NCBI GenBank assembly: GCA_963724765.1
Contig: CAVRVY010000004.1
Coordinates: forward strand, 160,001-224,000
Direction: 5' to 3'
DNA length: 64,000 nucleotides
DNA from: an uncultured delta proteobacterium
GTDB taxonomy: Bacteria; Desulfobacterota; Binatia; Binatales; Binataceae
Of this stretch, positions 9,971-27,117 are shown piece by piece (within the stretch, counting starts at the first letter, position 1; each line of letters begins with the position of its first letter). A program made the translations under genes and the position numbers. The notes below the pieces were generated by a model. That model made no database searches, had not been told where the DNA came from, and saw only the letters and a program-made list of their open reading frames with translations.

Positions 9971-10207
9971 CTATCGCGCACCCTCTTCGGGCACCGCAGC
10001 CGGCTTCGGCGCCCGGACCACAGGCGCCATCCCGCGCCTTCACCGGACGATTATAAGCGGTGGTGCGCGGGTTGAGAAATACGCCCCGGCGCGGCTCAAG
10101 CGCATCTCAGCCATATCTGTTGACAGCCGATGGTTCCGGCGTGTCGGCGCGCCGCACTTCGCATGGTAGCATCAAACGAGCGTGGCCGGCCCTGGCTACG
10201 CACCAGC

Positions 10208-11368
10208 ATGCTGCGAAACCGGGAGGATCTCGAGGAGTTGGAGGCGCGCACGCTCGCGCCTTACGCGATGCTGTCGCGGATGAGCCGCGGGCGGCGTTTC
10301 CCCGAGCCGCCGCATCCGATGCGCACGGCGTTCCAGCGCGACCGCGACCGTATCATTCATTCCGCCGCCTTCCGCCGCCTCGAATACAAGACCCAGGTCT
10401 TCGTCGACCACGAAGGCGATTACTACCGCACCCGTCTGACGCATACGGTGGAGGCCGCACAAATCACCCGCACGGTGGCGCGGGCGCTGGGCCTCAACTC
10501 GGAACTGGCCGAGGCGGTCGCGCTCGCGCACGATCTCGGCCACACGCCGTTCGGCCATGCCGGCGAGCGGGCGCTGCGCGCGCTGATGGAGCCCCACGGC
10601 GGTTTCGATCACAACGCGCAGAGCCTGCGCACGGTCGACTGGATCGAAGTGCGTTACCCGAATTTCCGCGGGCTCAACCTGACTTTCGAAGTCCGCGAGG
10701 GAATCATCAAGCACTCCGAGTTCAAGCTGCGCCCGGCGGCGGCCGAGTTCGACCCCTTGTTATTCCCGTGCCTGGAGGCGCAAATCGTCGACCTCGCCGA
10801 CGAAATCGCCTACCTCGCGCATGACGTCGACGACGGGCTGAAGGCCGAGATGCTGACGGTGGAAGACCTCGACCGTACGCACCTGTTCCACCAGGCCGCC
10901 GCCGCCGCGCACGAGGCGAGCCCGCGCGCCGAACCAGGGGTCGTGCGTTACCAGACCGTGATTCGCATGATCGACGCGATGGTGACCGACCTGGTCATCA
11001 ACATCAGCGGTGAACTCGAGCGCGGCTCGATTCGCAGCGTCGACGACGTGCGGCGCGCCGGGCGGGCGCTCGCGAACTTCGGCGGGGCGATGGCGCCGAT
11101 GGTGGAAGAGCTCAAACAACTGATGCGCGAGCGGCTGTATCGCCATTATCGGGTCAGCCGGATGACCGGCAAGGCGGGCAGGGTGCTCGAGCGCCTGTTC
11201 GAAACCTACATGGGCGAACCGCGCCAGATGCCCGGCCATGTGCTTCACCGTATCGAGGTCGACGGCGAGGCGCTCGCGCGCGTGGTCGCCGATTATATCG
11301 CGGGAATGACCGACCGCTTCGCGCTGGATGAATACCGCAAACTCTTCGACCCCGATGAACGTGTCTGA
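10208..11368 (+). CDS. dgt: Deoxyguanosinetriphosphate triphosphohydrolase (HD family)
   Basis: FQRDRDRIIHSAAFRRLEYKTQVF, RTRLTH, HDLGHTPFGHAGE, DYIAGMTD. Confidence 0.95.
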   Translation: MLRNREDLEELEARTLAPYAMLSRMSRGRRFPEPPHPMRTAFQRDRDRIIHSAAFRRLEYKTQVFVDHEGDYYRTRLTHTVEAAQITRTVARALGLNSELAEAVALAHDLGHTPFGHAGERALRALMEPHGGFDHNAQSLRTVDWIEVRYPNFRGLNLTFEVREGIIKHSEFKLRPAAAEFDPLLFPCLEAQIVDLADEIAYLAHDVDDGLKAEMLTVEDLDRTHLFHQAAAAAHEASPRAEPGVVRYQTVIRMIDAMVTDLVINISGELERGSIRSVDDVRRAGRALANFGGAMAPMVEELKQLMRERLYRHYRVSRMTGKAGRVLERLFETYMGEPRQMPGHVLHRIEVDGEALARVVADYIAGMTDRFALDEYRKLFDPDERV

Positions 11369-12035
11369 CGCGCCGCCAAACGGATCCGAAAGAAAGGGAC
11401 GGGCGGCGCGCGCGCGCGGCTCCACGGCGAGCATCGTCATCCGGCGCGAGGATCATATCGGCGACTCATTGGGGTTTATCTTTCTGGAAGCCGACAACGA
11501 CCACGATGCGATAATCGAGCGGCTGCGCGAATACCTCGGCCCGCGCATCAGGATCCTCAAGGCCGAAATCGGCGTCGAACGGATCGAAGTCGAGGCCGGC
11601 GGGCGGCGCTTCGCCGAGGAGGCGGCGCGGCTGGCCGAAGCCGCCCAGGGGTTGCGGCGCAAGGGTGCGTCGCGCAACGCGATGGCGCATTTCAAGGAAG
11701 CGCTCGCGCTTGACCCGCTCAACGTGATGGCGCTCTGCGGGCTGAGTGCGCTGTTGGCGGCGCGCGATGATTACTCGGGGGCGTTCACTATGCTGTGCAA
11801 GGCACGCGAGGCTGGCGGCGACAGCGCCGCGGTGCTGCACGAGCTCGGCCGCGTGGCGGCCCGGATGGGGCGAATCGCGACGGCAATCGTGTACCTCGAA
11901 CGCGCTTGCGAACTGGCGCCGGACGACCTGGCAATCCGGCGAACGCTGGCGGATCTTGGGCGCAAGCCGCGCGCGACGGTGAAGCTCAAGGAACGGGCGG
12001 CTTTGAGCCAACGCGATCGCGAAAAAGGCCGGTGA
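11355..12035 (+). CDS. Tetratricopeptide-repeat protein
   Basis: TPR-like helices (FKEALALDP, LHELGR, YLERACELAP); start uncertain. Confidence 0.7.
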   Translation: MNVSDAPPNGSERKGRAARARGSTASIVIRREDHIGDSLGFIFLEADNDHDAIIERLREYLGPRIRILKAEIGVERIEVEAGGRRFAEEAARLAEAAQGLRRKGASRNAMAHFKEALALDPLNVMALCGLSALLAARDDYSGAFTMLCKAREAGGDSAAVLHELGRVAARMGRIATAIVYLERACELAPDDLAIRRTLADLGRKPRATVKLKERAALSQRDREKGR

Positions 12036-12044
12036 CATTCTTCC

Positions 12045-12163
12045 GTCATCCTGAGCGAGCGTCGCGCGAGTCGAAGGACCCCGAATCTTTCTGAGCGCAC
12101 ATCGCGAGAGTCTCGGCGCGAGACGATCGGGGTCCCTCGACTCGCAGACCCGCTCGGGATTAC
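12045..12163. repeat. REP-like palindromic intergenic repeat (GTCATCCTGAGCG...GAGTCGAAGGAC / GTCCCTCGACTCG...CGCTCGGGATTAC)
   Basis: Long imperfect inverted repeat; related copies at 27166-27197 and 53483-53564. Confidence 0.75.
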
Positions 12164-12252
12164 AGATAAGAAGGATCTCGCGCGGCATCCTCTGCCTGTG
12201 GCTTGCTCTGTGGTTTTCTCGTCCACGGCACGAACGCTACAATCGTCCCACT

Positions 12253-12582
12253 GTGAGGCCCATCGATCTGCGGCACGCGGCTGCGTTCGGCCTGCTCGCC
12301 GCCTGGTATCTGCTGACGCCGCCCTTCGCTCCTGGCGATCCGCCCGGGCCGCTGCAGATCAACGCGCCCCTCAGCCAGTGGAGCCAGGCGGATTCGTCCG
12401 ACACCGCGTCGGGATGCGACGAGCAGCGCGACAACATGCTGAGGATGTACCGCAGCGCCGACATGACTTCAGTGGCGATCCAGTTCAAGCTTTTGCTCTA
12501 CCACAATTCCGTATGCGTCTCCTCGGCCGACCCGCGTCTCAAGCAATCCGCCAAACAGACTGCTCGCCATCCGCTTAAATAG
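12253..12582 (+). CDS. Small secreted or membrane-anchored hypothetical protein with two Cys (WYLLTPP...APLSQW...CVSSADPRLK)
   Basis: Hydrophobic N-terminus; TACAAT -10-like box just upstream. Confidence 0.65.
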   Translation: MRPIDLRHAAAFGLLAAWYLLTPPFAPGDPPGPLQINAPLSQWSQADSSDTASGCDEQRDNMLRMYRSADMTSVAIQFKLLLYHNSVCVSSADPRLKQSAKQTARHPLK

Positions 12583-14545: not shown

Positions 14546-15817
14546 TCACTGCGTGTACAAATCCGTGGTGTTGAGTGACCCGAAGATGCCTCCACCGCCG
14601 GCAATGAGGACCTTGCCGTTGGGTAGCAGCGTGGCAGTTGCATCAAGGCGCTGATAATTCATGCTGGGAGTTAAAGAAGCCGGAAAAAAGCTGTTGGTTG
14701 CGGGATCGTAGATATCAACGATGCTCGTATCAATGCTCCCAGTTATTCCGCCTGCGATCAGCACATTGGCATTGTTCAGCAACGTGGCTGTGGCTTCCAC
14801 ACGAGCCTTGTTCATCAGCGGAGTCGAAGACGCCGGGGCGAAGGTATTGCTCGCTGGGTCATACAAATCCACGTCGTTAAGTATCGGGTTCAAGGTGCCC
14901 CCACTCAGACCCAGGCCGCCAGCGATGAGCACTTTGCCGTTGGCCAGCAAAGTCGCCGTGGCTTGTTCGCGCGCTTCGTTCATTAACGGGGTCGAGGTGG
15001 CGAAGCTATTGGTAGCTGGATCGTACAAGTCCACGCTATTGGTCGGGGACTCTGTGGCTAACGATTTGCCATCATCGCCGCCGGCAATCAGCACCTTGCC
15101 ATTCGGTAACAGTGTCGCTGTGGCGTCACCCCGCGCGTCGCTCATCGCAGGAAGTGACGCGGCGGCGGCGAAGCTGTTGGTCGCCGGATCGTACAACTCC
15201 ACGCTGTTTAGCTGTATCCCGGGAGGATAAGGAAGCGCCGCGAAGCCACCCCCCCTGCGATCAGCACCTTGCCGTTGGGCAACAATACGGCGGTGGCCTG
15301 AGTGCGCGCAGTGTTCATGACCGGAACTGACGCGGCTGTAGCAAAGCTGTTGGTCGCCGGGTCATACAACTCGATGCTGTTTAGCGGTCCTGGAACGCCC
15401 CCCCCCAAGGGCCTCACCGCCCGCTATCAGCACCTTGCCGTTCGGCAGCAACACGGCGGCGGCCTGATAGCGCGCCGTGTTCATCGTGGGAGTCGAAGCG
15501 GGCGGAGCAAAACTGTTGCTCGCGGAACCATACAACTCCACGCTGTCGAGATACGTTCCAAAAAAGGGAGAGAGCGAGGTGCGGCCAAAGCCGCCTGCGA
15601 TAAGCACGTTACCGTTGGGCAACAACGTGGCGGTGGCGCCTTGACGTTCCTGATTCATGGAGGGGGTGGTACCTAGCGCAGCAAAGCTGCCACCTGAGGC
15701 AGGCTGCGCCTGCGGCGAAGACCCTGCCGAAGGCGAGGCGGACGAACCGCCGCCACATCCGGCAAGCATCAGGATGACGCTGAAGATGAGACCGCACCAG
15801 CTGCGTCCACTGGTCAT
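14546..15817 (-). pseudogene. Kelch-repeat (7-blade beta-propeller) lipoprotein broken by two poly-G frameshifts
   Basis: Lipobox LAGC; seven ATxxLLxNGKVLIAGG...ELYDP repeats over three ORFs; frame changes at G9 (15398-15406) and G7 (15249-15255); G8 at both restores one 423-aa ORF. Confidence 0.85.
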
Positions 15818-15953
15818 GTTGTTCCTCTCTGAGATCTTCAAACCTTCGGGATTCGACCGCAGATGCTCGGGCGTCCGGACGCGCTGCGAGGCGGCGAGCG
15901 CGGCGCCAGCGCGCCATGCCGACAATGAAAGCAGCGCGCAGGTCGAATCGGCT

Positions 15954-15981
15954 AGCTGACATAATATTTCAAGCGCCTGTT
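15954..15981 (-). other. dif-like Xer site A
   Basis: + strand AGCTGACATAA-TATTTC-AAGCGCCTGTT; XerD arm 10/11 and spacer 6/6 identical to dif; XerC arm degenerate. Confidence 0.75.
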
Positions 15982-16057
15982 ACGAACTCTGCGTTCGCGC
16001 CACGCTTGCAATAGGAGTAAAGCCGGATGTGCGTGCTAGACGCGAAGGAGCCAAGCA

Positions 16058-16426
16058 ATGGCAGTTAAAGCGATAGGGGAATTTTCGTTCAAGGCCATCA
16101 CCAGCACCTACAGTCCCGGGCCGGCGGGAAGCGTTCTCGACCAAGTGAATTGGGAAGGGACGGCGGCGGGGTTCGGAACAGTCTTCGGCACGGCTACCTA
16201 CGTCGGTGGTTCCAAGAACGGGACCTTCAGTGCGTGTTGGGTCGCTTACCTGGACAACGGCGAGCAACTTTCGGGTATCGGTTCTGGCACCTATGAGAGC
16301 AGCGGCAAACACCACTGGCGCACGCAGCACGTAATTCACATATCCGACGGCACTAGTATCGTCAACGAAGGTGAGATCGACCTGGCCACTCGGTCGTGGA
16401 CGGGTAAAAATTTCGAGAATAGCTGA
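16058..16426 (+). CDS. Hypothetical beta-rich protein, sole gene between dif-like sites A and B
   Basis: 122-aa ORF with AAGGAG RBS. Confidence 0.75.
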   Translation: MAVKAIGEFSFKAITSTYSPGPAGSVLDQVNWEGTAAGFGTVFGTATYVGGSKNGTFSACWVAYLDNGEQLSGIGSGTYESSGKHHWRTQHVIHISDGTSIVNEGEIDLATRSWTGKNFENS

Positions 16427-16557
16427 ACGCGGGAGTCTCGCCTCCGCCGGCCCGGCGCGCATAAAGGAGGACTTTCGTCCAAAAATTCCTCTGCTGAAGG
16501 GTTGGTAAGCGCGGCGAGCCGGAATCGGTCGCCGCGCTTTTCATTCGCGGATAAGCA

Positions 16558-16585
16558 AGCAGACATAATATTTCTCACGCAACTG
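16558..16585 (-). other. dif-like Xer site B
   Basis: + strand AGCAGACATAA-TATTTC-TCACGCAACTG; same spacer as dif. Confidence 0.75.
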
Positions 16586-16587
16586 GA

Positions 16588-16615
16588 CCGAAGCGCTGGC
16601 GACGTTACGTCAACT
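16588..16615 (+). other. Inverted dif-like Xer site F
   Basis: CCGAAGCGCTG-GCGACG-TTACGTCAACT; XerD arm 10/11 to dif; lies 2 bp from site B. Confidence 0.65.
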
Positions 16616-17447
16616 ACGTTGGCGATTTTGTTGCAATCGACAGTCATTTCAAATAGGCTTGTCGAATGGCTCAGAATCTGGTCAGAGCGGCCAAGGCGAT
16701 AGCGCGAGCGACGGCGAGCCGAGTAGTAGTCCCGCTACTCGTCCACGGCGAGGTGCGCTGTGAGCCTCGCGAACCCGGATCTAGGAGAACTTGAAGTGAG
16801 GCCCTTTAACCTCCAGTACAAAGGCCCGCTTCATTCAATGCAATCGGATAAAGCTGATCGAAAAAAAGAAGTCCATGATATTCGGCGAGCGTTTCACGAC
16901 CAATTAAAGCGACCGTGGAAATCGACCGAATTGCTCCGCTTTAAGTCGCAACACGATTATCACGGGTTCCCTTATCGCGGACAGCGTTATCAATCCGGAG
17001 ATGGACGGTGGCTACCTCTTGATCTAGATTGGGCTGTTACAAAACGAACAAAAGCCGGGCGAGACATAAATTTCATTCCTTTAGTAATACGCGCTACAGG
17101 GATGGCCCTTACTTGTGAACTTGAAATGCGGATTGCCTGGCGCGAAAAGACTCAAGGTGGGATCGTTCGAGCGACCGCAGAAGGCTTCGATTTAGACAAT
17201 CGGCTTAAACACATTCTCGATGCATTGGCGATCCCACAAGACAATCAATTGCCTGACGACGTTGCGGCTGACCCGTCGCCATATTTTCTAACCTTGCTCG
17301 AAGACGACGGCTTGATAACTCGCATCGATGTAAAGGCACATCCGATTGGCTTGCCAAAGCAACCAACGGAGCTAGACGCTTATCTTGAGTGGAGTTGACC
17401 CGGTTTCGTGGACAGTGGCGGAGTGGGGAAAGTGAAGGAGAGCCACG

Positions 17448-17762
17448 ATGCCCAAGAGTCATGCACGGTATGCGCTGGAATACCGGCGCCGAATGGTGGA
17501 GCTGGCGCGGGCAGGGCGTAGTCCCGACGATCTCGCGAAGGAGTTCGAGCCGACCGCCCAGTCGATTCGCAACTGGGTGGCGCAGGCGGAGCGCGATGCG
17601 GGCCGTCGTCTTGATGGGCTGACCAGCGACGAGCGGCAGGAGCTTACCCGGCTGCGGCGTGAGAACCGGGTGCTGCGCGAAGAGCGCGAGATACTATCAA
17701 AAGCCGCGGCCTGGTTCGCGACGGAGACCGGTTCGGTGCCGTCACGGCGTTCGAATTCGTGA
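17448..17762 (+). CDS. IS3 transposase OrfA (HTH plus leucine zipper)
   Basis: YALEYRRRMVEL...SIRNWV...ELTRLRRENRVLREEREILSKAAAWF; AAAAG possible -1 slip site near 17699. Confidence 0.92.
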   Translation: MPKSHARYALEYRRRMVELARAGRSPDDLAKEFEPTAQSIRNWVAQAERDAGRRLDGLTSDERQELTRLRRENRVLREEREILSKAAAWFATETGSVPSRRSNS

Positions 17763-18643
17763 GCGCGAATCAGGCCATGTACCAGATTGCGACGATGTGC
17801 CGGGTGCTGGAGGTCTCCACCAGCGGATACTACGCGTGGTGCCAACGCTCGCCGTCCGCGCGCGCCCAGGCGGACGCGGAACTCACTTCACGGATGAACG
17901 CGATTCATGAGAGATCGTACGGGACCTACGGCGCACCGCGCATTCACGCCGAACTTGAGGCTGAAGGCATTCAAGTGGGGCGCAAGCGGGTGGCGCGGCT
18001 AATGCGCGCGGCAGGCTTGGCCGGCGTGAGCCGGCGCAAGTGGATAACCACCACGATGCGTGACCGCAATGCGCGTCCGGCGCCGGACCTGGTCGAGCGC
18101 AACTTCATGGCGCCAGGACCGAATCGGTTGTGGGTGGCTGACATCACCTATATCCCGACCTGGGCTGGTTTCCTGTATCTCGCGGTAGTGTTGGACGCCT
18201 TCAGCCGCCGGATCGTGGGCTGGGCGATGGCGACTCATCTGCGCACCGAGCTGGTGCTCGAAGCACTGAACATGGCGCTGGCGCAGCGGCGGCCCGCCGG
18301 GGTGATCCATCATTCCGACCAAGGCACACAGTACACGTCGATCGCCTTCGGGATACGTTGCCGGGAGGCCGGCGCGCGACCCTCGATGGGCTCGGTCGGT
18401 GATTGCTTCGACAATGCCATGTGCGAGAGCTTTTTCGCTACGCTCGAATGCGAGCTGCTCGACCGCCGCCGTTTCCACACCCAAGCCGAGGCGCGCATGG
18501 CGGTCTTCGAGTTCATCGAGGGCTGGTACAATCCCCATCGCCGCCACTCCGCCCTCGACTATCTGTCGCCAATCAACTACGAAAGGAGCCACGACCCAGA
18601 GGAGTCAACCGCAAGCCCTCCGCCGTCCACTGAACCGGGGTAA
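17759..18643 (+). CDS. IS3 transposase OrfB (DDE integrase core)
   Basis: WVADITY, HHSDQGTQY, DNAMCESFF motifs. Confidence 0.95.
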   Translation: MSANQAMYQIATMCRVLEVSTSGYYAWCQRSPSARAQADAELTSRMNAIHERSYGTYGAPRIHAELEAEGIQVGRKRVARLMRAAGLAGVSRRKWITTTMRDRNARPAPDLVERNFMAPGPNRLWVADITYIPTWAGFLYLAVVLDAFSRRIVGWAMATHLRTELVLEALNMALAQRRPAGVIHHSDQGTQYTSIAFGIRCREAGARPSMGSVGDCFDNAMCESFFATLECELLDRRRFHTQAEARMAVFEFIEGWYNPHRRHSALDYLSPINYERSHDPEESTASPPPSTEPG

Positions 18644-18764
18644 CTCCAGAGATCGACATTGATGTGACGGTCCAGAGCGATGCGCTCGATGATTTTTAAG
18701 CCTTTCTGAGACTCGTTGGCGCCTGTTGAGTCGCGCTTTAGTATGCTGCGCGGATGTTCGCGCC

Positions 18765-19217
18765 CTACTCCAATAAGTCCACCATTGAAGACCCTAATTG
18801 TTGGTGGATCTGCTCCCAACGTGCCGTCGCCGCAAGGAGTTTGTCGTGGGCCTTGTCGCGCTCTTTCTCAAGGTCTGTGATTTGCGTTTTCAATTCCCGC
18901 ACCGCGCTCTCGACTGATTGAACATTTTGGACGGCCGTATGGCGCGCTTGTGCTAGGCGCGCCAGTTCTGGCTCAAGTGAGGGTCTCACATTTGAAGTAG
19001 CAGTGTCACGATATTCTCGAAACTTCTGATAATTCAGTTCTGCTTTTTCTCGCAATTCGTTGACATATGGCAACGTGCCTTTCGTATTGTTCGCCTTTGT
19101 TCTTATGAGCATGAGCTGGTCGTCATATTTTTGGACGCGCTCGCTCGCTTGGATACGTTTGGCATTTTCCACTTCCAGAGCATGTTGAAGATTTTCTCTA
19201 ATGCCCACCTCGTTCAC
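18765..19217 (-). CDS. Coiled-coil passenger protein of IS1595 #1
   Basis: 150-aa heptad-rich ORF, coupled (GTGA overlap) to the upstream small ORF. Confidence 0.6.
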   Translation of the reverse strand: MNEVGIRENLQHALEVENAKRIQASERVQKYDDQLMLIRTKANNTKGTLPYVNELREKAELNYQKFREYRDTATSNVRPSLEPELARLAQARHTAVQNVQSVESAVRELKTQITDLEKERDKAHDKLLAATARWEQIHQQLGSSMVDLLE

Positions 19218-19381
19218 CTCTGCCCGATCCTTGTCTTTGGATCTGAATGAATTGCTTTTCCTAACAACTTGTCAAACTTTCCTAAGTCAATATGGCGGAT
19301 CTGCTCCCGCAGCTTGTCATCCTCTGCGCGCTGCTTTTCGCTGATCGGCTTGTGCTTTTGCCTACGCTTTTTTGTGGCCAC
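19214..19381 (-). CDS. Small basic protein downstream of transposase #1 (55 aa, not in ORF track)
   Basis: MATKKRRQKHKPISEKQRAEDDKLREQIRHIDLGKFDKLLGKAI…; homologous to 24699-24854; TAAAGT -10 box 6 nt before GTG. Confidence 0.72.
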   Translation of the reverse strand: MATKKRRQKHKPISEKQRAEDDKLREQIRHIDLGKFDKLLGKAIHSDPKTRIGQR

Positions 19382-19431
19382 GCTTGTACTTTAGCGCGGC
19401 CACGGAGCCTAGGCCATATGGTGCTTGCAAA

Positions 19432-20364
19432 CTATCCACTGCACGTTTCGACCATCGCAGCAAAGGCGTCTGCGCTGTGGCGATTGTTGTGGCGAAAGCT
19501 GAACTCATTTAGATACAGCGGCAGATAATCCTTGCTCACGTGGTGATAGGTGCCCACCACGCCACGCTTGAGCAATGCCCAGAACGATTCGATATTGTTT
19601 GTGTGAACCTCGCCGCGCACATATTCGCCGCGACCGTGATTCACAGCCTGATGCGGGATGCTTCTGTTCAGATAGCGATAGGCTTGATTTTCATCGGTCG
19701 CAACCAGTGAAACCTTGTCGCTCACAGTGCGATTAACGAAACCAGTCAGAGTTTGGGCGCCCATATCGCCAATGACCTTGGCGACGATGTTGCCCTTGCG
19801 CTCGATAGCGCCAATCACGCCGACTTTGCCGTAGCCGATGGCTTCGCCTAGAGGCTGTCGGCCTTTGGCCTTGCGTACCTGGGCGCTTTTCTTGCCGTAG
19901 TGGCGATTCCGATCCTTTCCACCGATGTAAGTTTCATCGACTTCGACTTGGCCAGTCAGCGAAAACGCATCGCCTTTCATCGCAGCACGCCAGCGATGGC
20001 AGATATACCAAGCTGTGCGCCAGTCTGTACCTGAATCCTCGCCAAACATAACGCGCCGAACCTGAAGCGAGCTAATGCCTTTCTTCGCGGTCAGCATCAT
20101 GTAGCCAATGCGAAACCAGATAACCAGTGAGACTTTGGTGTCTTGAAAAATCGTGGCTGTGGTGACGCTAAAGCGATAGCCCGCGCGCTTGCCGCAATCG
20201 GCGTTGCAGCAAGTCCAGCTAAAGGGTTTCTTTAACTTGTAGATTTTCTCCGCACGATTACAGCGAGGGCAGCGCACGCCGTTCGGCCAGCGCTTGGCGA
20301 CGATGTATTCTTTGCAGGCTTCATCGGTCGGAAACTGTTTCTCGAATAGCGCCAGTGTTTCCAT
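19432..20364 (-). CDS. IS1595-family transposase #1
   Basis: Zn ribbon (RWPNGVRCPRC), EVDETYIGG, VATDE, HTNNIESFW, YLNEFSFRHN. Confidence 0.95.
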   Translation of the reverse strand: METLALFEKQFPTDEACKEYIVAKRWPNGVRCPRCNRAEKIYKLKKPFSWTCCNADCGKRAGYRFSVTTATIFQDTKVSLVIWFRIGYMMLTAKKGISSLQVRRVMFGEDSGTDWRTAWYICHRWRAAMKGDAFSLTGQVEVDETYIGGKDRNRHYGKKSAQVRKAKGRQPLGEAIGYGKVGVIGAIERKGNIVAKVIGDMGAQTLTGFVNRTVSDKVSLVATDENQAYRYLNRSIPHQAVNHGRGEYVRGEVHTNNIESFWALLKRGVVGTYHHVSKDYLPLYLNEFSFRHNNRHSADAFAAMVETCSG

Positions 20365-20371
20365 GCTTCAG

Positions 20372-20400
20372 ATATTAGCGCTCTTTGCGTTGACTGTCAA
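20372..20400 (-). promoter_or_regulatory. sigma70-type promoter of transposase #1 (TTGACA-17-TAATAT), likely leaderless
   Basis: -35 box at TIR positions 17-22; -10 box ends 7 nt before ATG. Confidence 0.7.
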
Positions 20401-20420
20401 TACCAACAAAATAGCCACTA

Positions 20421-20449
20421 CGTAGACATAAATACTTGGAGTGCAAGTT
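20421..20449 (-). other. dif-like Xer site C (degenerate)
   Basis: + strand CGTAGACATAA-ATACTTG-GAGTGCAAGTT; XerC-side GTGCAA matches site D only with a 7-bp spacer. Confidence 0.55.
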
Positions 20450-20955
20450 CACCCTCTCAGGTCCGGAGTCGGCCTCGAAGCGGAAACCAGCAGGGAGATA
20501 AAGGCGATTACAGTTACACCAAGGATCCAAAGGGTCGCCAGCATGAATATGACCGCTTCCTCGCGGATGAGATAACCGGCAGCTGCCGCAAAGCTCGCGG
20601 CAGCGATTCCTAAGCCCATCACACTCGTAGTGGAAGAGCGAAGTATTTCAGTCCGATGTCGGGAGGTTTCGAGCACGAGACGACCGCCGCCGATGAGATG
20701 TATTAGACCAGACACTGCGTTGCAGATCTGCCATGCAATGTGCTCTTCGGATGCCAGATACACCAGCAGAAGCGCAGCGAAAAGGGACAGAAATAGAGCG
20801 CTCAGCGAGGAGTACATGAAATGAAACAGCGCCGAGGTTTGGCCCCTACCTAGACGGTGAGATCGCTCACCAAAAACAAAGACCACGCCGATGAATCCGG
20901 TCAGAGTCGCGGCCACTTGCGCGTAGGCGAGGAGAATAACCGCGTAACTACTCAT
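20449..20955 (-). CDS. Multi-pass membrane hypothetical protein, sole gene between dif-like sites C and D
   Basis: About 5 hydrophobic segments; stop codon abuts site C. Confidence 0.75.
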   Translation of the reverse strand: MSSYAVILLAYAQVAATLTGFIGVVFVFGERSHRLGRGQTSALFHFMYSSLSALFLSLFAALLLVYLASEEHIAWQICNAVSGLIHLIGGGRLVLETSRHRTEILRSSTTSVMGLGIAAASFAAAAGYLIREEAVIFMLATLWILGVTVIAFISLLVSASRPTPDLRG

Positions 20956-21000
20956 GTTGGGGTGCTAGGCTCTCTCGAAATCACGATAATTTTCGAGTCT

Positions 21001-21028
21001 GGTGAACATAATATTTCTCGTGCAACTG
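21001..21028 (-). other. dif-like Xer site D
   Basis: + strand GGTGAACATAA-TATTTC-TCGTGCAACTG; same spacer as dif; XerC arm 9/11 to site B. Confidence 0.75.
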
Positions 21029-21030
21029 CA

Positions 21031-21058
21031 AAGAAGCGGTCGCAAGATTATGTCAACT
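21031..21058 (+). other. Inverted dif-like Xer site E
   Basis: AAGAAGCGGTC-GCAAGA-TTATGTCAACT; XerD arm identical to dif; lies 2 bp from site D. Confidence 0.7.
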
Positions 21059-21084
21059 TGAATCAAGTGGCGATTATCCGGCGC

Positions 21085-21113
21085 TTGACACCGACCCAAT
21101 AAAGCGCTATTCT
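21085..21113 (+). promoter_or_regulatory. sigma70-type promoter of transposase #2 (TTGACA-17-TATTCT), likely leaderless
   Basis: -35 box at TIR positions 17-22; -10 box ends 7 nt before ATG 21121. Confidence 0.72.
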
Positions 21114-21120
21114 TTTCATC

Positions 21121-22101
21121 ATGAATACGAAGAGAAAGCCCGTTGTTCGGCAGATGCAATTGCGCGAGCTTCTGGCCCGTTTCTCGACTGAGGATGCTTG
21201 CAAAGAACACCTTGACCGAAGGCGCTGGCCGGATGGTGTGGTCAAGTGCCCGCGTTGCGGCGGCAAAGCATACCGGCTCAAGGCGCGCCCCTTCCACTAC
21301 CTGTGCAAGAGCGGCAAGCAATCGACCGATAAAGAGACCGGCGATGTCGTTACCTGCCACAAACAAAACGGCTATCGCTTCTCCGTCATCACGCGAACTG
21401 TGTTCGAGAATACGAACTACCCTCTTCGAGAATGGTTCCGGGTAATCTTCTTCATGCTGCACTCGAAGAAAGGAATGTCTGCCCATCAGATACACCGCAT
21501 GATCGGAACCGGCTCGTATGAAACCGCTTGGTATATGTGCATACGAATTCGCGCCGCAATGCGCGGCGATATGCTTTCGCTGAGCGGCATTGTAGAAGCG
21601 GACGAGACTTACATCGGCGGGAAGGATCGCAATCGACACTGGAACAAAAAGAGCCGTCAGCAACGTGAATTGGCTGGGCCACAACCGCTTGGCGAGGCCG
21701 TTGGATACGGGAAAAGCGGAGTCATCGGCGCAATCGCTCGCAAGGGTAACGTCGTCTGCCGCGTGATCGGCGATCAGGATGCTCGCACGCTTGCGGGTTT
21801 CGTTCGCAACGTCGTTGACGACAAGGTAACCCTCGTCGCGACGGACGAGAACCAAGCCTACAATTATTTGGACCGCGACATTCGCCATGAGGCGGTCAAG
21901 CACAGCGCTGGCGAATACGTGCGCGGCGAGGTCCATACGAACAACATCGAGAGTTTCTGGAGCCTTCTGAAGCGTGGCGTTGTGGGCACCTATCACAACG
22001 TGAGCAAGAAATATCTGCCGCTGTATCTGAATGAATTTTCCTTCCGATTCAACAATCGCGAGAACCCTGATATCTTCGACGCCATCCTTCGAGGATGCTG
22101 A
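21121..22101 (+). CDS. IS1595-family transposase #2
   Basis: RWPDGVVKCPRC, EADETYIGG, VATDE, HTNNIESFW, YLNEFSFRFNNR. Confidence 0.95.
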   Translation: MNTKRKPVVRQMQLRELLARFSTEDACKEHLDRRRWPDGVVKCPRCGGKAYRLKARPFHYLCKSGKQSTDKETGDVVTCHKQNGYRFSVITRTVFENTNYPLREWFRVIFFMLHSKKGMSAHQIHRMIGTGSYETAWYMCIRIRAAMRGDMLSLSGIVEADETYIGGKDRNRHWNKKSRQQRELAGPQPLGEAVGYGKSGVIGAIARKGNVVCRVIGDQDARTLAGFVRNVVDDKVTLVATDENQAYNYLDRDIRHEAVKHSAGEYVRGEVHTNNIESFWSLLKRGVVGTYHNVSKKYLPLYLNEFSFRFNNRENPDIFDAILRGC

Positions 22102-22177
22102 GTTCGCCACGCTGGCGGCGCCCTCAGCAACCGTCAAAGCCAGCGCAATTGCGGTTACCGTTTGCTGCGAGGGTGGG

Positions 22178-22453
22178 ATGGCACGGAAGAAAGCAAAACG
22201 ATCGGTTGGATCAGCTCGCGTTCCAATTTCCGATGAAAAATTGATCGCGCGCCTCCAAGAGAAAGCGCCGGAGCTATTGACTGCCAAGGTTTCGGAAGCG
22301 GCCTTTGATTCGGTCATAGACAATCTGCTTGCGGAATCGCCATCCGATGATCGTCCGCATTTCTATTGCCGCAAATGCGGGGAATATCACCTGAAAAGTC
22401 ATTTGCACTATCAACCTAGCGCCACTACGAAAACCACCCCAAAACAAGCTTGA
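22178..22453 (+). CDS. Small basic protein downstream of transposase #2, with C-terminal CxxC/His motif
   Basis: MARKKAKRS…AAFDSVIDNLL…YCRKCGEYHLKSH; GAGGG RBS before ATG 22178. Confidence 0.65.
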   Translation: MARKKAKRSVGSARVPISDEKLIARLQEKAPELLTAKVSEAAFDSVIDNLLAESPSDDRPHFYCRKCGEYHLKSHLHYQPSATTKTTPKQA

Positions 22454-23075
22454 GCGATCAAGAGAAGAAAGATTCCCCCGAACCCGCAGAGCGCGGAACG
22501 AAGGGGAGTCACCTGACGGGGCACTTCGAACTCGATCTCCCAAATCCCAACGAGGATACAACCGCAGGCGAAAGAATCAGAAATCCTTCAAGCGCCGCCT
22601 TTTTAACGACCTGCGAAACCCGCGCTTTTATATCGAAGGATTCGCTCTCATCGTTGTTGCCATCTATACCGGCTTCGCTGGATATCAATCGTGTCAGTTG
22701 GAACGCTCTACCATTGCGACCAAAGAAAGCGCTGATGCTGCGGTTGCGGCGACGCGTGCCTTGATCTTTCTCGAAGAGAAACCATTTTTCGGCAGTTATG
22801 GACCTGTATGCACTATGGGCTTGCAAAATGTCGGCAAGATTCCCGCTACTCAGATAATCGAAACGCACGAATTCAAGATCACCGCCAACGATAATGCCGT
22901 TCCGAGTTTTTCCCGATGTCCTGAAGGGAAGAAACTCCGCTTCCCGTATATCAGGCCTGATCATCCGAGAATCTTCGCAATCGCTCCACCGGTCGGAGCT
23001 TCCCAGACTCCGCCCACAGTCTGGATTCACGGCTGTATTCGCTATCGCGACTTCTTGAGCGCGCGTCTAGTTTAG
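22450..23075 (+). pseudogene. Membrane-anchored passenger protein, probably frameshifted
   Basis: The frame of the 22698-23075 ORF stays open upstream through a TM segment (FALIVVAIYTGFAGYQ) but has no start; the likely TTG start at 22450 is in another frame. Confidence 0.45.
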
Positions 23076-23240
23076 ACCCACGATCTGGTCGGTGTCGAGT
23101 ATCGGATAATCGCCCCTCAAGTGGGGACTAGGTGAATGTTGACACCCACTGAAAGTTGGCATAAAAAGAGTCGAGGACGGCTATGCAGGGAGGTTCTGCG
23201 GGCGGGGTTCCCGCCCGGTTACAAGGGCCGCGAGTGGTTT

Positions 23241-23979
23241 ATGATTCTCCACGCTTACTTTGACGAACACGGGCACGATGGATCGTCCGTATACGCCATC
23301 GCTGGTTACGTCGGGACCGATGAGCAATGGAGCACGTTCACTGAAAAGTGGAGCTCTACCCTAGAGCGTCATTATGCATTCGGCCCGTTCCACATGGTCG
23401 AGTTCGAGGCTTCAGACATAGACAAAAAGAGCCAGTTCCACGGCTGGAGCAAGGATCAAAAGGACGCGCTGGCGAAAGAGCTTTTTCCGCTCATCCCTGA
23501 CAGCGGTGTGCGCGGATTAGGCCAAGCGATACTGATGGACGCCTTTAATGGCCTTTCGGAGAATGCACAGCAACGGTTACGCGATCCTTATTGGGGTCTG
23601 CTTCCACAACTGTATCGAACGACTACTGAAGGACATTCCAGAGGACGACAAGGTTGATTTGGTTTTTGATCGCAAAGACAAATACACTGGCGAAGCGCTG
23701 GATCGCTATAGATTTCTCAAGGATGACTGGCTGCCGCCTGCACAGGCGAAAAAGCTAGTGGGTTGTGCATTCAGAGACGACGATATCATTATTCCGCTAC
23801 AAGCAGCGGACGTTCTCGTTTATGAAACCGGCAAATTATTTGAGAACGCCTTTCGTAGGCCAGATTTATCGGAGAGAAAGTCACTGCAAGTTCTCCGTGC
23901 GCGACAAAACGTACAAATCGGAGTCTGGGACAGGGATAATCTTGCCGCAGAGTTTAAAAAATACAACTCCCTACTCTAG
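23241..23979 (+). pseudogene. DUF3800-like protein with a +1 frameshift at a G4 run (23593-23596)
   Basis: AYFDEHG N-terminal and PLQAADVLVY C-terminal motifs in different frames; removing one G joins DPYW|VCFHNC; start may lie further upstream. Confidence 0.7.
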
Positions 23980-24179
23980 CCACTGCTGGTAAGACACGCC
24001 CAAAAAATAGCGGCGACCACCGCGACGGCGCCTAAAACCAGCGGAATCGCACAGCCGATAAGGCCGAGCGCATCGCCCACTCCCATCGGGCCGGGATGGC
24101 TTTGGCCGCAATGTGGGCAGACCTTCGCTTTCTCTGAAACAGGCGCGTGGCAGGTTTTGCAGTTGACCAGAGCGGCCAC
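23976..24179 (-). CDS. Small zinc-ribbon plus TM passenger protein
   Basis: CKTC...CPHCG followed by a hydrophobic helix. Confidence 0.65.
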   Translation of the reverse strand: MAALVNCKTCHAPVSEKAKVCPHCGQSHPGPMGVGDALGLIGCAIPLVLGAVAVVAAIFWACLTSSG

Positions 24180-24185
24180 GAACGT

Positions 24186-24674
24186 TCAACGGCCGAAGCG
24201 GCATACATTAGAAATCAGGCGCTGAGAGATGTCCTCGCACGACGTGTAGGTTGAGCCATCATCACAATCAAATCGTAGTTCATCGTTCTCAGCGACCTTG
24301 ATAGCGAGATATCTGGCATCAACGCGCCTATAAGACGCGAGGGGACCGTACAGCCGAGATTCGACAATACTGATGTATCGCCCAGCATTGCTGAATTCTA
24401 CTTCAATTTTTACATAAGGCAGTCGAGCGGTTGCGGTTAATACAAACTTCGTATCGCTGAGCTCTAGAAATGCGCAATGGCATTCTGGGTTCGCCTTAAG
24501 TTCTCGGCGAAGCTTTTCTGAATCGATAGAGATTCGATGCTTCAACGAATCCCAAAAAAGCGGCGCCTTGGCGGCAATAATAGCGGCGTTGTGTAGGCGC
24601 AGCCTGTCTCGAATGATCGCCCGTTCGTCTTGCTCGCGTTGCTGGCTCTTTAGTGTCTCTATCCAGTCGCTCAT
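24186..24674 (-). CDS. Hypothetical passenger protein of IS1595 #3
   Basis: Open frame co-oriented with transposase operon; no recognised motif. Confidence 0.55.
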   Translation of the reverse strand: MSDWIETLKSQQREQDERAIIRDRLRLHNAAIIAAKAPLFWDSLKHRISIDSEKLRRELKANPECHCAFLELSDTKFVLTATARLPYVKIEVEFSNAGRYISIVESRLYGPLASYRRVDARYLAIKVAENDELRFDCDDGSTYTSCEDISQRLISNVCRFGR

Positions 24675-24698
24675 AGTTCCATCCGCCACCACGTCTTT

Positions 24699-24854
24699 TC
24701 ATTTAGCCCCTTCCCGAGAACGGAAAAGTGGCTTGATGGCCCGCTTGAATTTCTCAGGGTCGGCGTACGCGAGTTCCTGTCTTAGGCGCTCGTCTTCGGC
24801 GCGCGTTTTCTCTTTCAACCTGCTTGGCTGCTTCGATTTGGTCTTGCGAGGCAC
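24699..24854 (-). CDS. Small basic protein downstream of transposase #3 (51 aa, not in ORF track)
   Basis: MPRKTKSKQPSRLKEKTRAEDERLRQELAYADPEKFKRAIKPLF…; shares EKxRAEDxxLR……DxxKF with 19214-19381; TATGCT -10 box 6 nt before GTG. Confidence 0.72.
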   Translation of the reverse strand: MPRKTKSKQPSRLKEKTRAEDERLRQELAYADPEKFKRAIKPLFRSREGAK

Positions 24855-24886
24855 GCTGAAAGCATAGCGCTTTCAAATCGCGCCGG

Positions 24887-25825
24887 CTACTGAGCGCACG
24901 TCGTAATCAAGTCGGCAAACATGTTCTCGTTCTTTCGATTGTTAAAGCGATAGCTGAATTCGTTCAAATAGAAGGGCAGATACTTCTTGCTGACGTTATG
25001 GTAGTTGCCGACGATTCCGCGCTTCAGCAACGCCCAGAACGATTCGATTGAGTTTGTGTGAACGTTGCCGCGCACGTATTCGCCGCGCGCGTGGCTCACG
25101 GCCTGATGCGGCATGCCTGCGCGAACAAACTTATAAGCTGGATTCTCGTCAGTCGCGACGAGCGTAACTTTCTCGTCTGTGGCGCGGCGCACGAATGAAC
25201 CGAGAGTAGGAGCATCCATCGAGCCGATAACGCGGGCCACGACGTTGCCCTTGCGCTCGATAGCCCCGATCACGCCGACCTTCCCGAATCCAACGGCCTC
25301 GCCAAGCCGTTGCGCGCCCTTGGCCTTGCGTACCTGGGCGCTCTTTTTGTTCTTGTGACGATTGCGGTCTTTCCCGCCGATATAAGTCTCGTCAACCTCG
25401 ACTTCGCCGCTCAGTGGACGGTACATATCGCCAGCCATCGCAGCGCGCCAGCGCATGCACATGAACCAGCTTGTGTGATAGTCGTGCGTGGAATTCTCGC
25501 CAAACATCACGCGATGAATCTGAAGCGCACTCATGCCTTTCTTTGAAGTCAGCATCAGATAGCCGACCTTAAACCAAAGATCGAGCGGCTTCTTTGTATT
25601 CTCGAAGATCGTTCCGCTGATGACCGAGAACCGAAAGCCCTGACGCTTGCCGCAATCCTCGTTCTTGCAGACCCAATGAAAGGGCCGCGCCTTGAGCGCG
25701 TAGACCTTTTCCTTGCGATCGCAGCGGGGGCAGCGCACGCCGTCCGGCCAGCGCATTTGAACCAGAAAGCGACGGCATTGCTCGTCGGTTCCAAACTCTC
25801 TATCGAAGTCGCCGATGGTCTGCAT
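24887..25825 (-). CDS. IS1595-family transposase #3
   Basis: RWPDGVRCPRC, EVDETYIGG, VATDE, HTNSIESFW, YLNEFSYRFNNR; start placed at ATG 25825. Confidence 0.95.
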   Translation of the reverse strand: MQTIGDFDREFGTDEQCRRFLVQMRWPDGVRCPRCDRKEKVYALKARPFHWVCKNEDCGKRQGFRFSVISGTIFENTKKPLDLWFKVGYLMLTSKKGMSALQIHRVMFGENSTHDYHTSWFMCMRWRAAMAGDMYRPLSGEVEVDETYIGGKDRNRHKNKKSAQVRKAKGAQRLGEAVGFGKVGVIGAIERKGNVVARVIGSMDAPTLGSFVRRATDEKVTLVATDENPAYKFVRAGMPHQAVSHARGEYVRGNVHTNSIESFWALLKRGIVGNYHNVSKKYLPFYLNEFSYRFNNRKNENMFADLITTCAQ

Positions 25826-25831
25826 GCTCAA

Positions 25832-25860
25832 AGAATAGCGCTAAACGAGACGAGTGTCAA
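25832..25860 (-). promoter_or_regulatory. sigma70-type promoter of transposase #3 (TTGACA-17-TATTCT), likely leaderless
   Basis: -35 box at TIR positions 17-22; -10 box ends 6 nt before ATG. Confidence 0.72.
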
Positions 25861-25881
25861 CATTCACCTAGTCCCCCCTCA

Positions 25882-25909
25882 AGTTGACATAATATTTCTT
25901 ATGCGAAGC
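25882..25909 (-). other. dif: Chromosomal dif site (XerC/XerD recombination site)
   Basis: GCTTCGCATAA-GAAATA-TTATGTCAACT versus E. coli GGTGCGCATAA-TGTATA-TTATGTTAAAT (9/11 in each arm); intergenic; KOPS-like motifs converge on it. Confidence 0.9.
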
Positions 25910-26058
25910 CGTACTAATGCAAACCAAAATAAACCGCAGTTAGGCTGGGTGTCAATGCCGCGGCCGCCGACAGACTCCTTCCGGATGCGCTCGTCCGATG
26001 TGCGTCGGTGCGACCTGCTGGCGCGCGCGCTCGCGCGTCTCTATGATTGGGAGCCGTT

Positions 26059-27117
26059 ATGACTTCAAAGCTTCAATTGCGATCGATCATCGTTGCTTTC
26101 GCCGCGCTGCTGGCGCTCACACCTTATGGCAGTGCGGCGCGGGCCGCCTCGGCGAGCGACACTCATGCCAGCTCCAGCGACGGCGCTTCCCAGAGCGTGC
26201 AGGTGCAGATCTTTCTCCAGCGTCATTTCCGCCTGCCCAGCGCCGCCGACGTCGATGTTGGTCCGCCGCAAGCTTCATCGATTCCCGGATTTTCCGTCAG
26301 GATCGTCAAGCTGCATAACGACGCCGGTCAGTCGGCCACCTTCGTCCTGTACACCGACGCCGCCGGCAAGACCGCGATTTTGAGCGACGTCGAAGTCGGC
26401 GCGGCCTCGCCCGGCCCGGCGCACGGCCTGTGGAGCCGCCCACTGCGCCCGGCCAACGAGCCGCCAGGCGCCCCGGCCAAGTCGGTATTGATCACTGACT
26501 CACCCGGCAAAGCGATCGTTGGCACCGAAATGGATTTGACCAAGGATCCATGGGGACGTGTCAACCTTGAGAAGCTGCATCTCGACGACCGCGCCACGCT
26601 TGGGCCCGACGACGCGCCGGTGACGATCCTCGAGTTCGGCGATCTCGAATGCCCCTTCTGCGCGCGCGCCTTCAGTGAGATCGAGACCGTGGTAAACACG
26701 ACCTACAAGGGCAAGGTGCGGCTCATCTTCAAGCACTTTCCCCTGAACATCCATCCGTGGGCGATGCAGGCCGCGATCGCGGCCGAGTGCGTGCGCCGCC
26801 AGAATCCCAAGGCCTTCTGGTCCTTCGTCGGCGACGTCTATCGCGACCAGGGCGCGATCAACCCGCAGAATTTGCGCCAGCACGTCAGCACTTACGTCGA
26901 GAAGCTCGGATTGGATCAGCAGGTGCTCAATGCCTGCATCATGGCGCCGGCGGCCGAAGCCCAGGTTACGCAGGACCGCGACGACGGCACCGCAATCGCG
27001 ATCAATTCCACGCCGACCTTTCTGGTCAACGGAATCGAGTTGGTAGGGTTGCCCTCGGACAAGACCTTCGATTACGTGGTCAACTCCGAAGTGAAGCAGC
27101 ATCAGGCGAGCAAATAG
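26059..27117 (+). CDS. DsbA-family thioredoxin-fold protein, exported
   Basis: Signal peptide; EFGDLECPFC, FKHFPL, STPTFLVNG. Confidence 0.9.
   Translation: MTSKLQLRSIIVAFAALLALTPYGSAARAASASDTHASSSDGASQSVQVQIFLQRHFRLPSAADVDVGPPQASSIPGFSVRIVKLHNDAGQSATFVLYTDAAGKTAILSDVEVGAASPGPAHGLWSRPLRPANEPPGAPAKSVLITDSPGKAIVGTEMDLTKDPWGRVNLEKLHLDDRATLGPDDAPVTILEFGDLECPFCARAFSEIETVVNTTYKGKVRLIFKHFPLNIHPWAMQAAIAAECVRRQNPKAFWSFVGDVYRDQGAINPQNLRQHVSTYVEKLGLDQQVLNACIMAPAAEAQVTQDRDDGTAIAINSTPTFLVNGIELVGLPSDKTFDYVVNSEVKQHQASK

Follow-up and report, generated by a model that had tools for sequence, protein, structure and literature searches.

A lineage of "transporter" insertion sequences (ISs) of the IS1595 family very probably transposes site-specifically to the outer edge of a Xer half-site, nearly always the XerD arm of the chromosomal recombination site dif. 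The case comes from a window of 64,000 nucleotides (the whole stretch of DNA that was analysed, G000:C4:160001-224000) of a Binataceae genome, G000, referred to as the own genome, of which contigs C1-C4 are named in this analysis. Three different IS1595 elements lie in this window, one directly beside dif, one stacked behind it and one at a lone XerD-like arm. By comparing sequences we show here the geometry of insertion, its recurrence across genomes, the relation of empty to filled sites, the restriction to certain lineages, and stacking.

Three IS1595 elements at the replication terminus

Cumulative guanine + cytosine (GC) skew is maximal at ~16-24 kb in the window (180 kb on contig C4), and the region is therefore the replication terminus. 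The dif site found here is a canonical 28-bp site in reverse orientation, with the XerD arm on the left, and reads AGTTGACATAA-TATTTC-TTATGCGAAGC. The pattern CGCATAAGNNNNATTATGTNAACT, used to find dif genome-wide and family-wide, has a single copy in the own genome, which carries two genes for Xer-like recombinases (316 and 267 bits against TIGR02225, both below its cut-off of 329.6); the XerC/XerD gene pair lies at C3:1107052-1107933 and C2:373047-373922. The 28-bp layout of arm, 6-bp centre and arm, the single copy, the terminus position and the two Xer-like genes mark it as the chromosomal dif. The features on which the argument rests are the following.

25882-25909, minus strand: chromosomal dif; XerD arm 25882-25892 (AGTTGACATAA on the plus strand), centre 25893-25898, XerC arm 25899-25909
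23123-25876, minus strand: element 3, IS1595-family cargo element, 2754 bp; terminal inverted repeats (TIRs) 23/24; the transposase-proximal end adjoins dif
24887-25831, minus strand: transposase of element 3, 314 aa (PF12762, PF12760; NF033547 172.6 bits)
25877-25884, no strand: dif-proximal duplication copy CCTCAAGT, whose final AGT (25882-25884) forms the outer end (3 bp) of the XerD arm
23115-23122, no strand: distal duplication copy CCTCAAGT of element 3, doubling as the right flank of element 2
21069-23114, plus strand: element 2, IS1595-family cargo element, 2046 bp; TIR 20/24; stacked behind element 3
21121-22101, plus strand: transposase of element 2, 326 aa (Pfam, NCBIfam)
21048-21058, plus strand: site G, a lone XerD arm TTATGTCAACT, inverted with respect to the dif arm; element 2 begins 10 bp beyond
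16621-20416, minus strand: element 1, IS1595-family cargo element, 3796 bp including a nested IS3-family element; TIR 20/24
19432-20364, minus strand: transposase of element 1, 310 aa (Pfam, NCBIfam)
16605-16615, plus strand: site F, a lone XerD-like arm TTACGTCAACT; the left end of element 1 lies 5 bp beyond

All three transposases match the Pfam models DDE_Tnp_IS1595 (PF12762, E = 4e-38 to 6e-41) and Zn_ribbon_IS1595 (PF12760) above cut-off, and NCBIfam NF033547 with 172-200 bits against a cut-off of 75. A transposase of DDE type, an N-terminal zinc ribbon and TIRs matching at 20-23 of 24 positions place elements 1-3 in the IS1595 family. Each is present as a single copy in the own genome, and at pairwise transposase identities of 60-65% they are indeed as clearly different as the first-pass annotation of the window had held.

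Element 3 is flanked on both sides by CCTCAAGT, a perfect 8/8 duplication made up, as that annotation had recognised, of the three outermost base pairs of the XerD arm and the 5 bp that follow. With the three arm bases duplicated, dif stays intact, in line with what had been proposed. For element 1 the same geometry had been claimed at site F: the 5-bp spacing stands, the coordinates of the site had been 1 bp off and are those listed above, and the flanks (ACTACGTT/ACTACGTA) agree at 7 of 8 positions. Element 2, whose transposase-distal end faces dif, does end at the same CCTCAAGT on its right; its left flank reads AATCAAGT, an imperfect duplication (6/8) that had gone unseen. Overlooked as well were the occurrence of both orientations, insertions on the XerC side, the probable role of site F, site G and two pseudo-dif sites (A and B, see below) as ends of Xer-type modules, and the nested IS3-family element. 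The sequence GACATAATATTTC occurs five times in the window at no more than 2 mismatches, against 0.33 expected, and five was reached by none of 100 shuffles; chance coincidence is excluded by the family-wide dif census described below.

These positions suggest how insertion could proceed. The transpososome would make cuts staggered by 8 bp, one between arm positions 8 and 9 and the other 5 bp outside the arm, such that repair would leave the arm intact and the element at a distance of 5 bp from it, with ACT+N5 on its flanks. The regenerated dif would be functional and still a target, and later arrivals, using the same phosphodiester bonds, would push older elements outward, giving rise to stacks.

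Placement at Xer half-sites in relatives and across the host family

Relatives were picked by transposase similarity alone, from two sources: the best 80 of 572 confirmed matches in genome contigs (L001-L080), and the best matches in 165 genomes of the host order, itself made up of one family (at E <= 1e-60 there is a match in 104 of them, six of these unpublished). Around 20 further matches +-10 kb were examined, and inverted repeats were paired with their flanks, which gave a mapped set, window included, of 32 elements in 23 genomes. In L001, L002, L003, L007 and L017 the transposase gene is preceded by a full dif, then 5 bp, then the inverted repeat; L006 has a XerD arm with an atypical left half and L005 another IS end at this place, and the layout is absent from L008-L016 and L018-L030. 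At L120 and L002 the contig stops before the second end, and L004 is a short contig without dif. Across the mapped elements the TIRs match at 18-24 of 24 positions, and the 8-bp duplication is perfect in 27, 7/8 in two (element 1 and the second element of L005) and 6/8 in two (element 2 and L111), L128 being a separate case. The first-pass annotation had proposed to look in homologues for a peak 5 bp from the XerD arm, and the peak is there and sharp: 25 of the 32 elements lie exactly 5 bp from a Xer half-site, 22 of them at a XerD-type and three at a XerC-type arm, and six more are stacked behind a neighbour with whose duplication theirs is in common. The 22 XerD-side elements turn either end to dif, the transposase-proximal one in 12 cases and the distal one in 10. 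The same 8-bp duplication is found three times in L003 and in L114 and four times in L122, a repetition that agrees with successive elements entering at one position, the latest beside dif, and with the outward stacking that had been put forward from the window.

One stacked unit at dif in L003 (10245-10312) is of a different kind: it comprises 68 bp and no transposase, resembles a miniature inverted-repeat transposable element made of two IS1595-type inverted repeats, and has the duplication ACTTAGCT. Judged by its position, this derivative obeyed the targeting rule too.

A census of 165 genomes of the host family was started from dif instead of the transposase, with an IS1595-type end defined as the TIR start GGSNANT. 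The dif pattern was present in 128 of the 165 genomes with 129 hits (once in 127, twice in G150), and the reverse-read control gave 0 hits. Ends were counted by offset as follows.

XerD arm +5 bp: 39 genomes, in 13 of 30 genera
XerD arm +4 bp: 5 genomes, two or three of them ambiguous (G runs)
XerD arm +6 bp: 1 genome (G132 = L129)
XerC arm +5 bp, mirror pattern: 5 genomes, all of genus g11

By chance ~129/512 = 0.25 would be expected. With seven unpublished genomes excluded, dif is found in 122 of 158 genomes, with 36 ends at +5 and 3 at +4. The figure of 39 is a lower bound, the pattern having missed variant ends in G131 and G053 (both among 20 "unoccupied" flanks that were read) and in G066. 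The 5-bp flanks vary between genomes, which therefore record many separate insertion events. Their first base is A or T at all 39 occupied and all 20 unoccupied sites and is thus a property of the dif flank, not of the IS. The homing to the XerD arm that the three window elements had suggested is in this way borne out family-wide.

One could suppose that insertion is random or biased to the terminus and that selection retains only the harmless copies beside dif. The flank is in keeping with this, being non-coding, variable and a collector of foreign DNA (GC content is 52-59% across 14-26 kb of the window against 62-68% in the surroundings). Such a process would leave unexplained a placement exact to the base (+5 in 39 genomes, +4 in 5, +6 in 1), the identical duplications repeated within stacks and the single copy per genome, and we consider it hardly credible. 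Filled and empty sites can also be compared directly: for four genomes of genus g2 the sequence on the far side of the element can be aligned to what comes straight after the XerD arm in the unoccupied genome G001, with agreement at 56-62 of 70-73 positions. The elements are therefore simple insertions plus 8 bp, and Xer-mediated arrival is excluded.

In a careful maximum-likelihood tree of 63 transposases, which leaves a 39-row grouping from a quick tree unresolved, all 32 Xer-associated rows fall within three clades of 33, three and three rows. The 33-row clade (support 100/98) comprises 28 Xer-associated rows, three that are not, one unknown and one one-ended; of the two 3-row clades one holds element 2 and L005_4942 and the other L114_2642 and L116_12895; and the other clades, 24 rows in all, contain no Xer-associated row. 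The three XerC-side elements whose ends read GGG(G/A)ATTAG group together in a single subclade (100/99), and L116 carries a second, unrelated element stacked on the XerC side, so that the XerC side was entered at least twice, always within the same genus. L119 has a XerC-side element at 9629-12554.

A number of observations count against site-specific transposition to Xer half-sites or narrow what the figures can bear. The element at L128, alone among the 32, lies elsewhere, with a 7-8 bp duplication (7/8 with the boundary moved by one base) and no half-site; for L112 a single end was found and no half-site in 20 kb; L129 (= G132) lies 6 bp from the arm with flanks that match at 5/8; and L121 has hybrid ends, from two different elements. 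For the 6/8 duplication of element 2, Xer deletion from an E-like site to dif and recombination between two copies were considered; neither is supported, and Xer deletion would leave the flank unchanged. The hosts are related metagenome-assembled genomes and the counts are not independent events; the XerC-side cases, five genomes of one genus, may reflect just two events; and the labels on the tree derive from the very flanks that define the feature while near-relatives cluster by descent, so that the tree shows restriction and not the number of origins.

Probable Xer-type modules interleaved with the elements

The XerD side of dif in the window holds three further sites of dif-like layout.

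15954-15981, minus strand: pseudo-dif site 0, left border of a 604-bp module
16558-16585, minus strand: pseudo-dif site A, XerD arm + TATTTC + degenerate XerC arm TCACGCAACTG
21001-21028, minus strand: pseudo-dif site B, XerD arm + TATTTC + degenerate XerC arm TCGTGCAACTG

Sites 0, A and B combine a good XerD arm and the dif central region with unrelated "XerC arms" and stand in direct repeat with dif, the motif ACATAATATTTC being common to all four. It bounds the module 15959-16563 (604 bp), whose 122-aa open reading frame (ORF), like the ORFs of a module in L113, has no match in Pfam or NCBIfam. Four paralogues of this module, 70-86% identical, were found (C4:228010-230235 on the minus strand and C3:832430-832898, with the same bounding motif, and C2:291729), three of them in tandem ~42 kb across dif in inverted orientation. 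Together they look like a family of miniature Xer-type modules. No recognisable function is encoded in the window modules (site 0 to A, A to B, B to dif).

Two 53-nt units, A-F (16563-16615) and B-G (21006-21058), are 79% identical, and each precedes an IS. A unit of the A-F type consists of a reverse XerD arm, TATTTC, TCRYGCAACYG, 19 bp and an inverted XerD arm, with its two XerD arms pointing apart and exactly 36 bp between them; at least three genomes contain it, in some cases beside an IS and in others free of one (L007, 15657-15714, and L113, 6782-6839). The inverted arm pairs (A-F and B-G; ACATAA-36 bp-TTAYGT) were considered as a folded attP like that of CTX and rejected, for only XerD arms pair and the stem has no XerC arm. 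Directly right of element 1, at 20422-20447, is a weak dif-like site, CGTAGACATAA-ATACTT-GGAGTGCAAGT, at which homology to the L007/L113 module ends.

Such an arrangement recalls the integrative mobile elements exploiting Xer (IMEX; CTX-phi, TLC-phi and similar) and the dif modules of Acinetobacter, in which, too, the dif flank is occupied and dif forms arrays with degenerate dif-like sites; sites 0, A and B resemble IMEX-type junctions, the window modules differing by their good XerD arm and degenerate XerC arm. In the available part of one report (PMC11014353) a XerC-like recombinase encoded by an element works together with the XerD of the host at a dif-like site, and transposition to dif is not described. 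The elements themselves, or parts of them, might be thought to have been integrated by XerCD recombination, the IS ends lying near the crossover site by accident, and the three pseudo-dif sites in direct repeat with dif, the two homologous 53-nt units each before an IS, and locus L111 (a 92%-identical relative of element 3 adjoins a pseudo-dif there, the real dif being 2.2 kb further on) would agree with this. An IMEX, however, is bounded by dif or dif-like sites and integrates by strand exchange inside the site, with neither TIR nor duplication, whereas the IS1595 elements lie beside the site, possess both (27 of 32 duplications perfect, TIRs 18-24/24) and make filled sites differ from empty ones by exactly the element + 8 bp. 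Moreover, a second dif-like site next to the element is absent from the majority of occupied dif sites, and the A-F unit occurs IS-free in L007 and L113. We therefore regard Xer integration of the elements as very improbable, and retain transposition. Xer recombination may nevertheless move whole stacks secondarily, and we read the stacks in the window as probably interleaved with Xer-integrated (IMEX-like) modules bounded by pseudo-dif sites; each such integration would have shifted the then-current XerD arm, with its IS neighbour or neighbours, away from functional dif.

The low-GC stretch left of pseudo-dif site 0 contains, at 14546-15202 and 15362-15925, two minus-strand ORFs with Kelch repeats. 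On its XerC side dif is bordered by conserved chromosomal DNA, with a DsbA-like gene at 26047-27117.

Recognition of the half-site, cargo and relation to known systems

Two traits accompany the dif-associated lineages. In 26 of 31 mapped elements the transposase is followed by a small basic ORF of 45-59 aa (consensus ~MxxKxSKxxKPISEKTRxSDExLREELxxADxxKFKRL); this ORF belongs to no Pfam or NCBIfam family, and a hidden Markov model of the main small-ORF family, searched against L001-L080 and the whole own genome, matches only dif-clade loci. In another subclade three elements carry a small ORF of a different kind. Xer-associated transposases further have a basic insertion (loop, KKSAQxRKAKGxQPLGEAxGY) after the first catalytic Asp. 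The regular expression used to measure it caught 38 of 63 rows; of 25 Xer-associated rows among them 24 have a loop of at least 17 aa, and of 10 others 8 have one of at most 14 aa. L013 and L016, in or near the dif clades, insert elsewhere and have no basic insertion; L128 has the insertion and likewise lies elsewhere. By these comparisons small ORF and basic loop mark the dif-associated lineages, as correlations only.

Sister lineages are informative as to what is read. L013 (7949-11256) and an element of the own genome (C3:1205343-1208150) have the identical duplication CTTGACGA within the common sequence CTTGACGAATAGCG, and L012 (7890-7911, 10034-10050) and C2:279438-279475 of the own genome have the duplication AAATATTT/AAATACTT in the palindrome GGGTGAAATATTTCACCC. 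Judged by these flanks, sister IS1595 lineages have two other fixed targets, and this favours a DNA-reading function that has diversified. That element 1 stands at the lone arm F means that a full dif is not needed as target, and since TTATG..AA.T is common to the XerC and XerD arms, one DNA reader could serve both. We accordingly give a tentative preference, short of an even wager, to recognition of half-site DNA (~TTATG-NN-AA-S-T) by an element-encoded protein, which could be the transposase with its basic loop and/or the small basic ORF. Against pure DNA reading speak an unoccupied 11-mer at C3:674869 identical to site F, three other unoccupied relaxed arm matches and 16 of 18 unoccupied ATGTCAACT 9-mers; the elements being single-copy, this is weak evidence.

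A close second, possible though somewhat doubtful, is capture through the recombinase, the form in which the first-pass annotation had put it (homing to XerD-bound DNA): the transpososome would be recruited by arm-bound XerD (XerC in one sublineage), and the cuts would be set by the protein-DNA complex and not by the bases. XerC and XerD are paralogues, both Xer-like genes are present in the genome, and the geometry is set from the arm edge on both sides of dif (duplication = 3 arm bp + 5 bp). The 5-bp flank is no more conserved than at empty dif sites, and the targeted arms, TTATGTC/A/TAACT, vary at position 7. The authors of the IS1202 preprint, in the part of it available to us, keep the same possibility for their family (10.1101/2022.12.17.520857). 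One of the cuts, however, falls within the arm, 3 bp from its edge, at a place that a bound recombinase would occupy; sister lineages within this transposase group use unrelated fixed sequences, which argues for a DNA-reading capacity; and the TTATG..AA.T common to the arms lets one DNA-reading module explain both sides.

Mimicry of the TIR was rejected as an explanation. The inner TIR box TTGACA is present in the reverse complement of the arm TTATGTCAACT, but many targeted arms read TTATGTAAACT, without the box, and non-dif sister lineages retain the same box. Two observations on contig C2 are added here: the palindrome GGGTGAAATATTTCACCC follows directly after GCTTCGCATAA, an exact match to the XerC arm of dif, and at least four more transposase genes of the IS1595 family, with 36-58% identity to their counterparts in the window, lie away from the terminus within ~35 kb (C2:250-284 kb).

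Recognition by an element-encoded reader enters a broader view of the dif flank as a two-tier landing pad, which is speculative and in our estimate rather unlikely. In the first tier elements would arrive with a half-site reader of their own, provided by the small basic protein (50 aa), by the transposase through its basic loop, or by both; in the sublineages this reader would be retuned to one of the two arms (XerD or XerC) or to fixed sequences unrelated to them. In the second, XerCD would move stacks bracketed by pseudo-dif sites as IMEX-like circles, excising and reintegrating them, and in this way a transposon with one target per genome would spread between genomes.

Besides the conserved ~50-aa basic ORF the mapped elements carry one to three passenger genes. 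Those of the window, with the small ORFs, are as follows.

24699-24854, minus strand: small basic ORF of element 3, 51 aa, directly downstream of the transposase; conserved family
24186-24692, minus strand: cargo ORF of element 3, 168 aa, without known family
23136-23979, plus strand: DUF3800-type cargo gene of element 3, broken into two ORFs (23136-23657, 23548-23979)
19214-19381, minus strand: small basic ORF of element 1, 55 aa, same family as 24699-24854
16760-17398, plus strand: cargo ORF of element 1, 212 aa, without known family; recurs in 6 elements
17390-18649, plus strand: nested IS3-family insertion sequence (orfA/orfB) in element 1; Pfam rve and HTH_21

Recurrent passengers are two DUF3800 families, in 8 and 3 elements, a family of 211-235 aa in 6 elements (including 16760-17398) and one of 292-311 aa in 5. 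The split DUF3800-type gene of element 3 groups with intact proteins of 294-316 aa in 7 other elements, representatives of which match PF12686. The 168-aa cargo ORFs match nothing in Pfam or NCBIfam, and against PADLOC no defence model was matched by the cargo, one ORF giving only coiled-coil noise. The nested IS3-family element has a 100% identical copy at C4:1088436-1089695 and partial copies on C1.

IS1595 subgroups with passenger genes and 8-bp duplications are said to be described in ISfinder and by Siguier et al. in 2009. The present elements resemble the family in transposase domains, TIRs starting with GG, 8-bp duplication and occasional passengers, and they differ from it in the conserved 50-aa ORF without a named family and in dif targeting. 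Tn7, which by its TnsD pathway enters attTn7, offers a functional parallel: a single conserved chromosomal landing site where host function is unharmed, one copy per genome, and cargo. Here, in contrast, there is no TnsABC+D machinery, orientation is not fixed and the target is a recombination site instead of a gene end, and, unlike Tn7, the elements have no target immunity, because stacks form.

Full-text searches, which did not extend to the supplementary tables of two IS1202 papers, yielded nothing on elements of the IS1595 family at dif or Xer sites, nor on sequence- or site-specific targeting in IS1595. The nearest precedent is the ISAba32/ISAjo2 subgroup of the IS1202 family, for which the available parts of two reports (Harmer, Pong & Hall 2023, PMC10132070; Siguier et al. 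2022, 10.1101/2022.12.17.520857) describe DDE insertion sequences inserting 5 bp from Xer sites, both plasmid pdif/xrs and chromosomal dif. According to these parts, the transposase is TnsB-like (441-457 aa), the duplication comprises 5 bp outside the arm, and insertion is always on the XerC side with the left inverted repeat (IRL) towards the site; one site can take several insertions, the ISs have no passenger genes, the hosts are Acinetobacter, enterobacteria and others, the recognition mechanism is left unexplained and a "safe haven" role is discussed. As far as those parts go, the two groups are alike as DDE ISs with a 5-bp spacing from the Xer site and several insertions per site. The transposase here is unrelated, of IS1595 type with a zinc ribbon (310-326 aa); the duplication is 8 bp and includes 3 arm bp; 22 of the 25 abutting elements are on the XerD side, with orientation 12:10, so that only the 5-bp spacing is in common in this respect; passenger genes are present; and the hosts are Binataceae.

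Aiming at Xer sites was thus known before for one transposon family, IS1202, and IS1595 is a second, unrelated and much simpler one. With two unrelated families at them, Xer sites look like a recurrent safe haven, found independently. What determines target choice is an open question for most insertion sequences, and the sublineage targets seen here (XerD arm, XerC arm and two unrelated fixed sequences) form a natural comparative series for the residues, in a small DDE transposase or in its 50-aa partner, that choose a target; a minimal module of this kind could serve tools for targeted insertion. If the two-tier view is true, its first tier would endow one of the simplest DDE transposons with a minimal targeting module able to evolve. 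For the Binataceae, the finding explains the hypervariable XerD-side flank of dif, and dif + 5 bp + GGSGATT gives a simple marker for new cargo genes, including the recurrent DUF3800 proteins.

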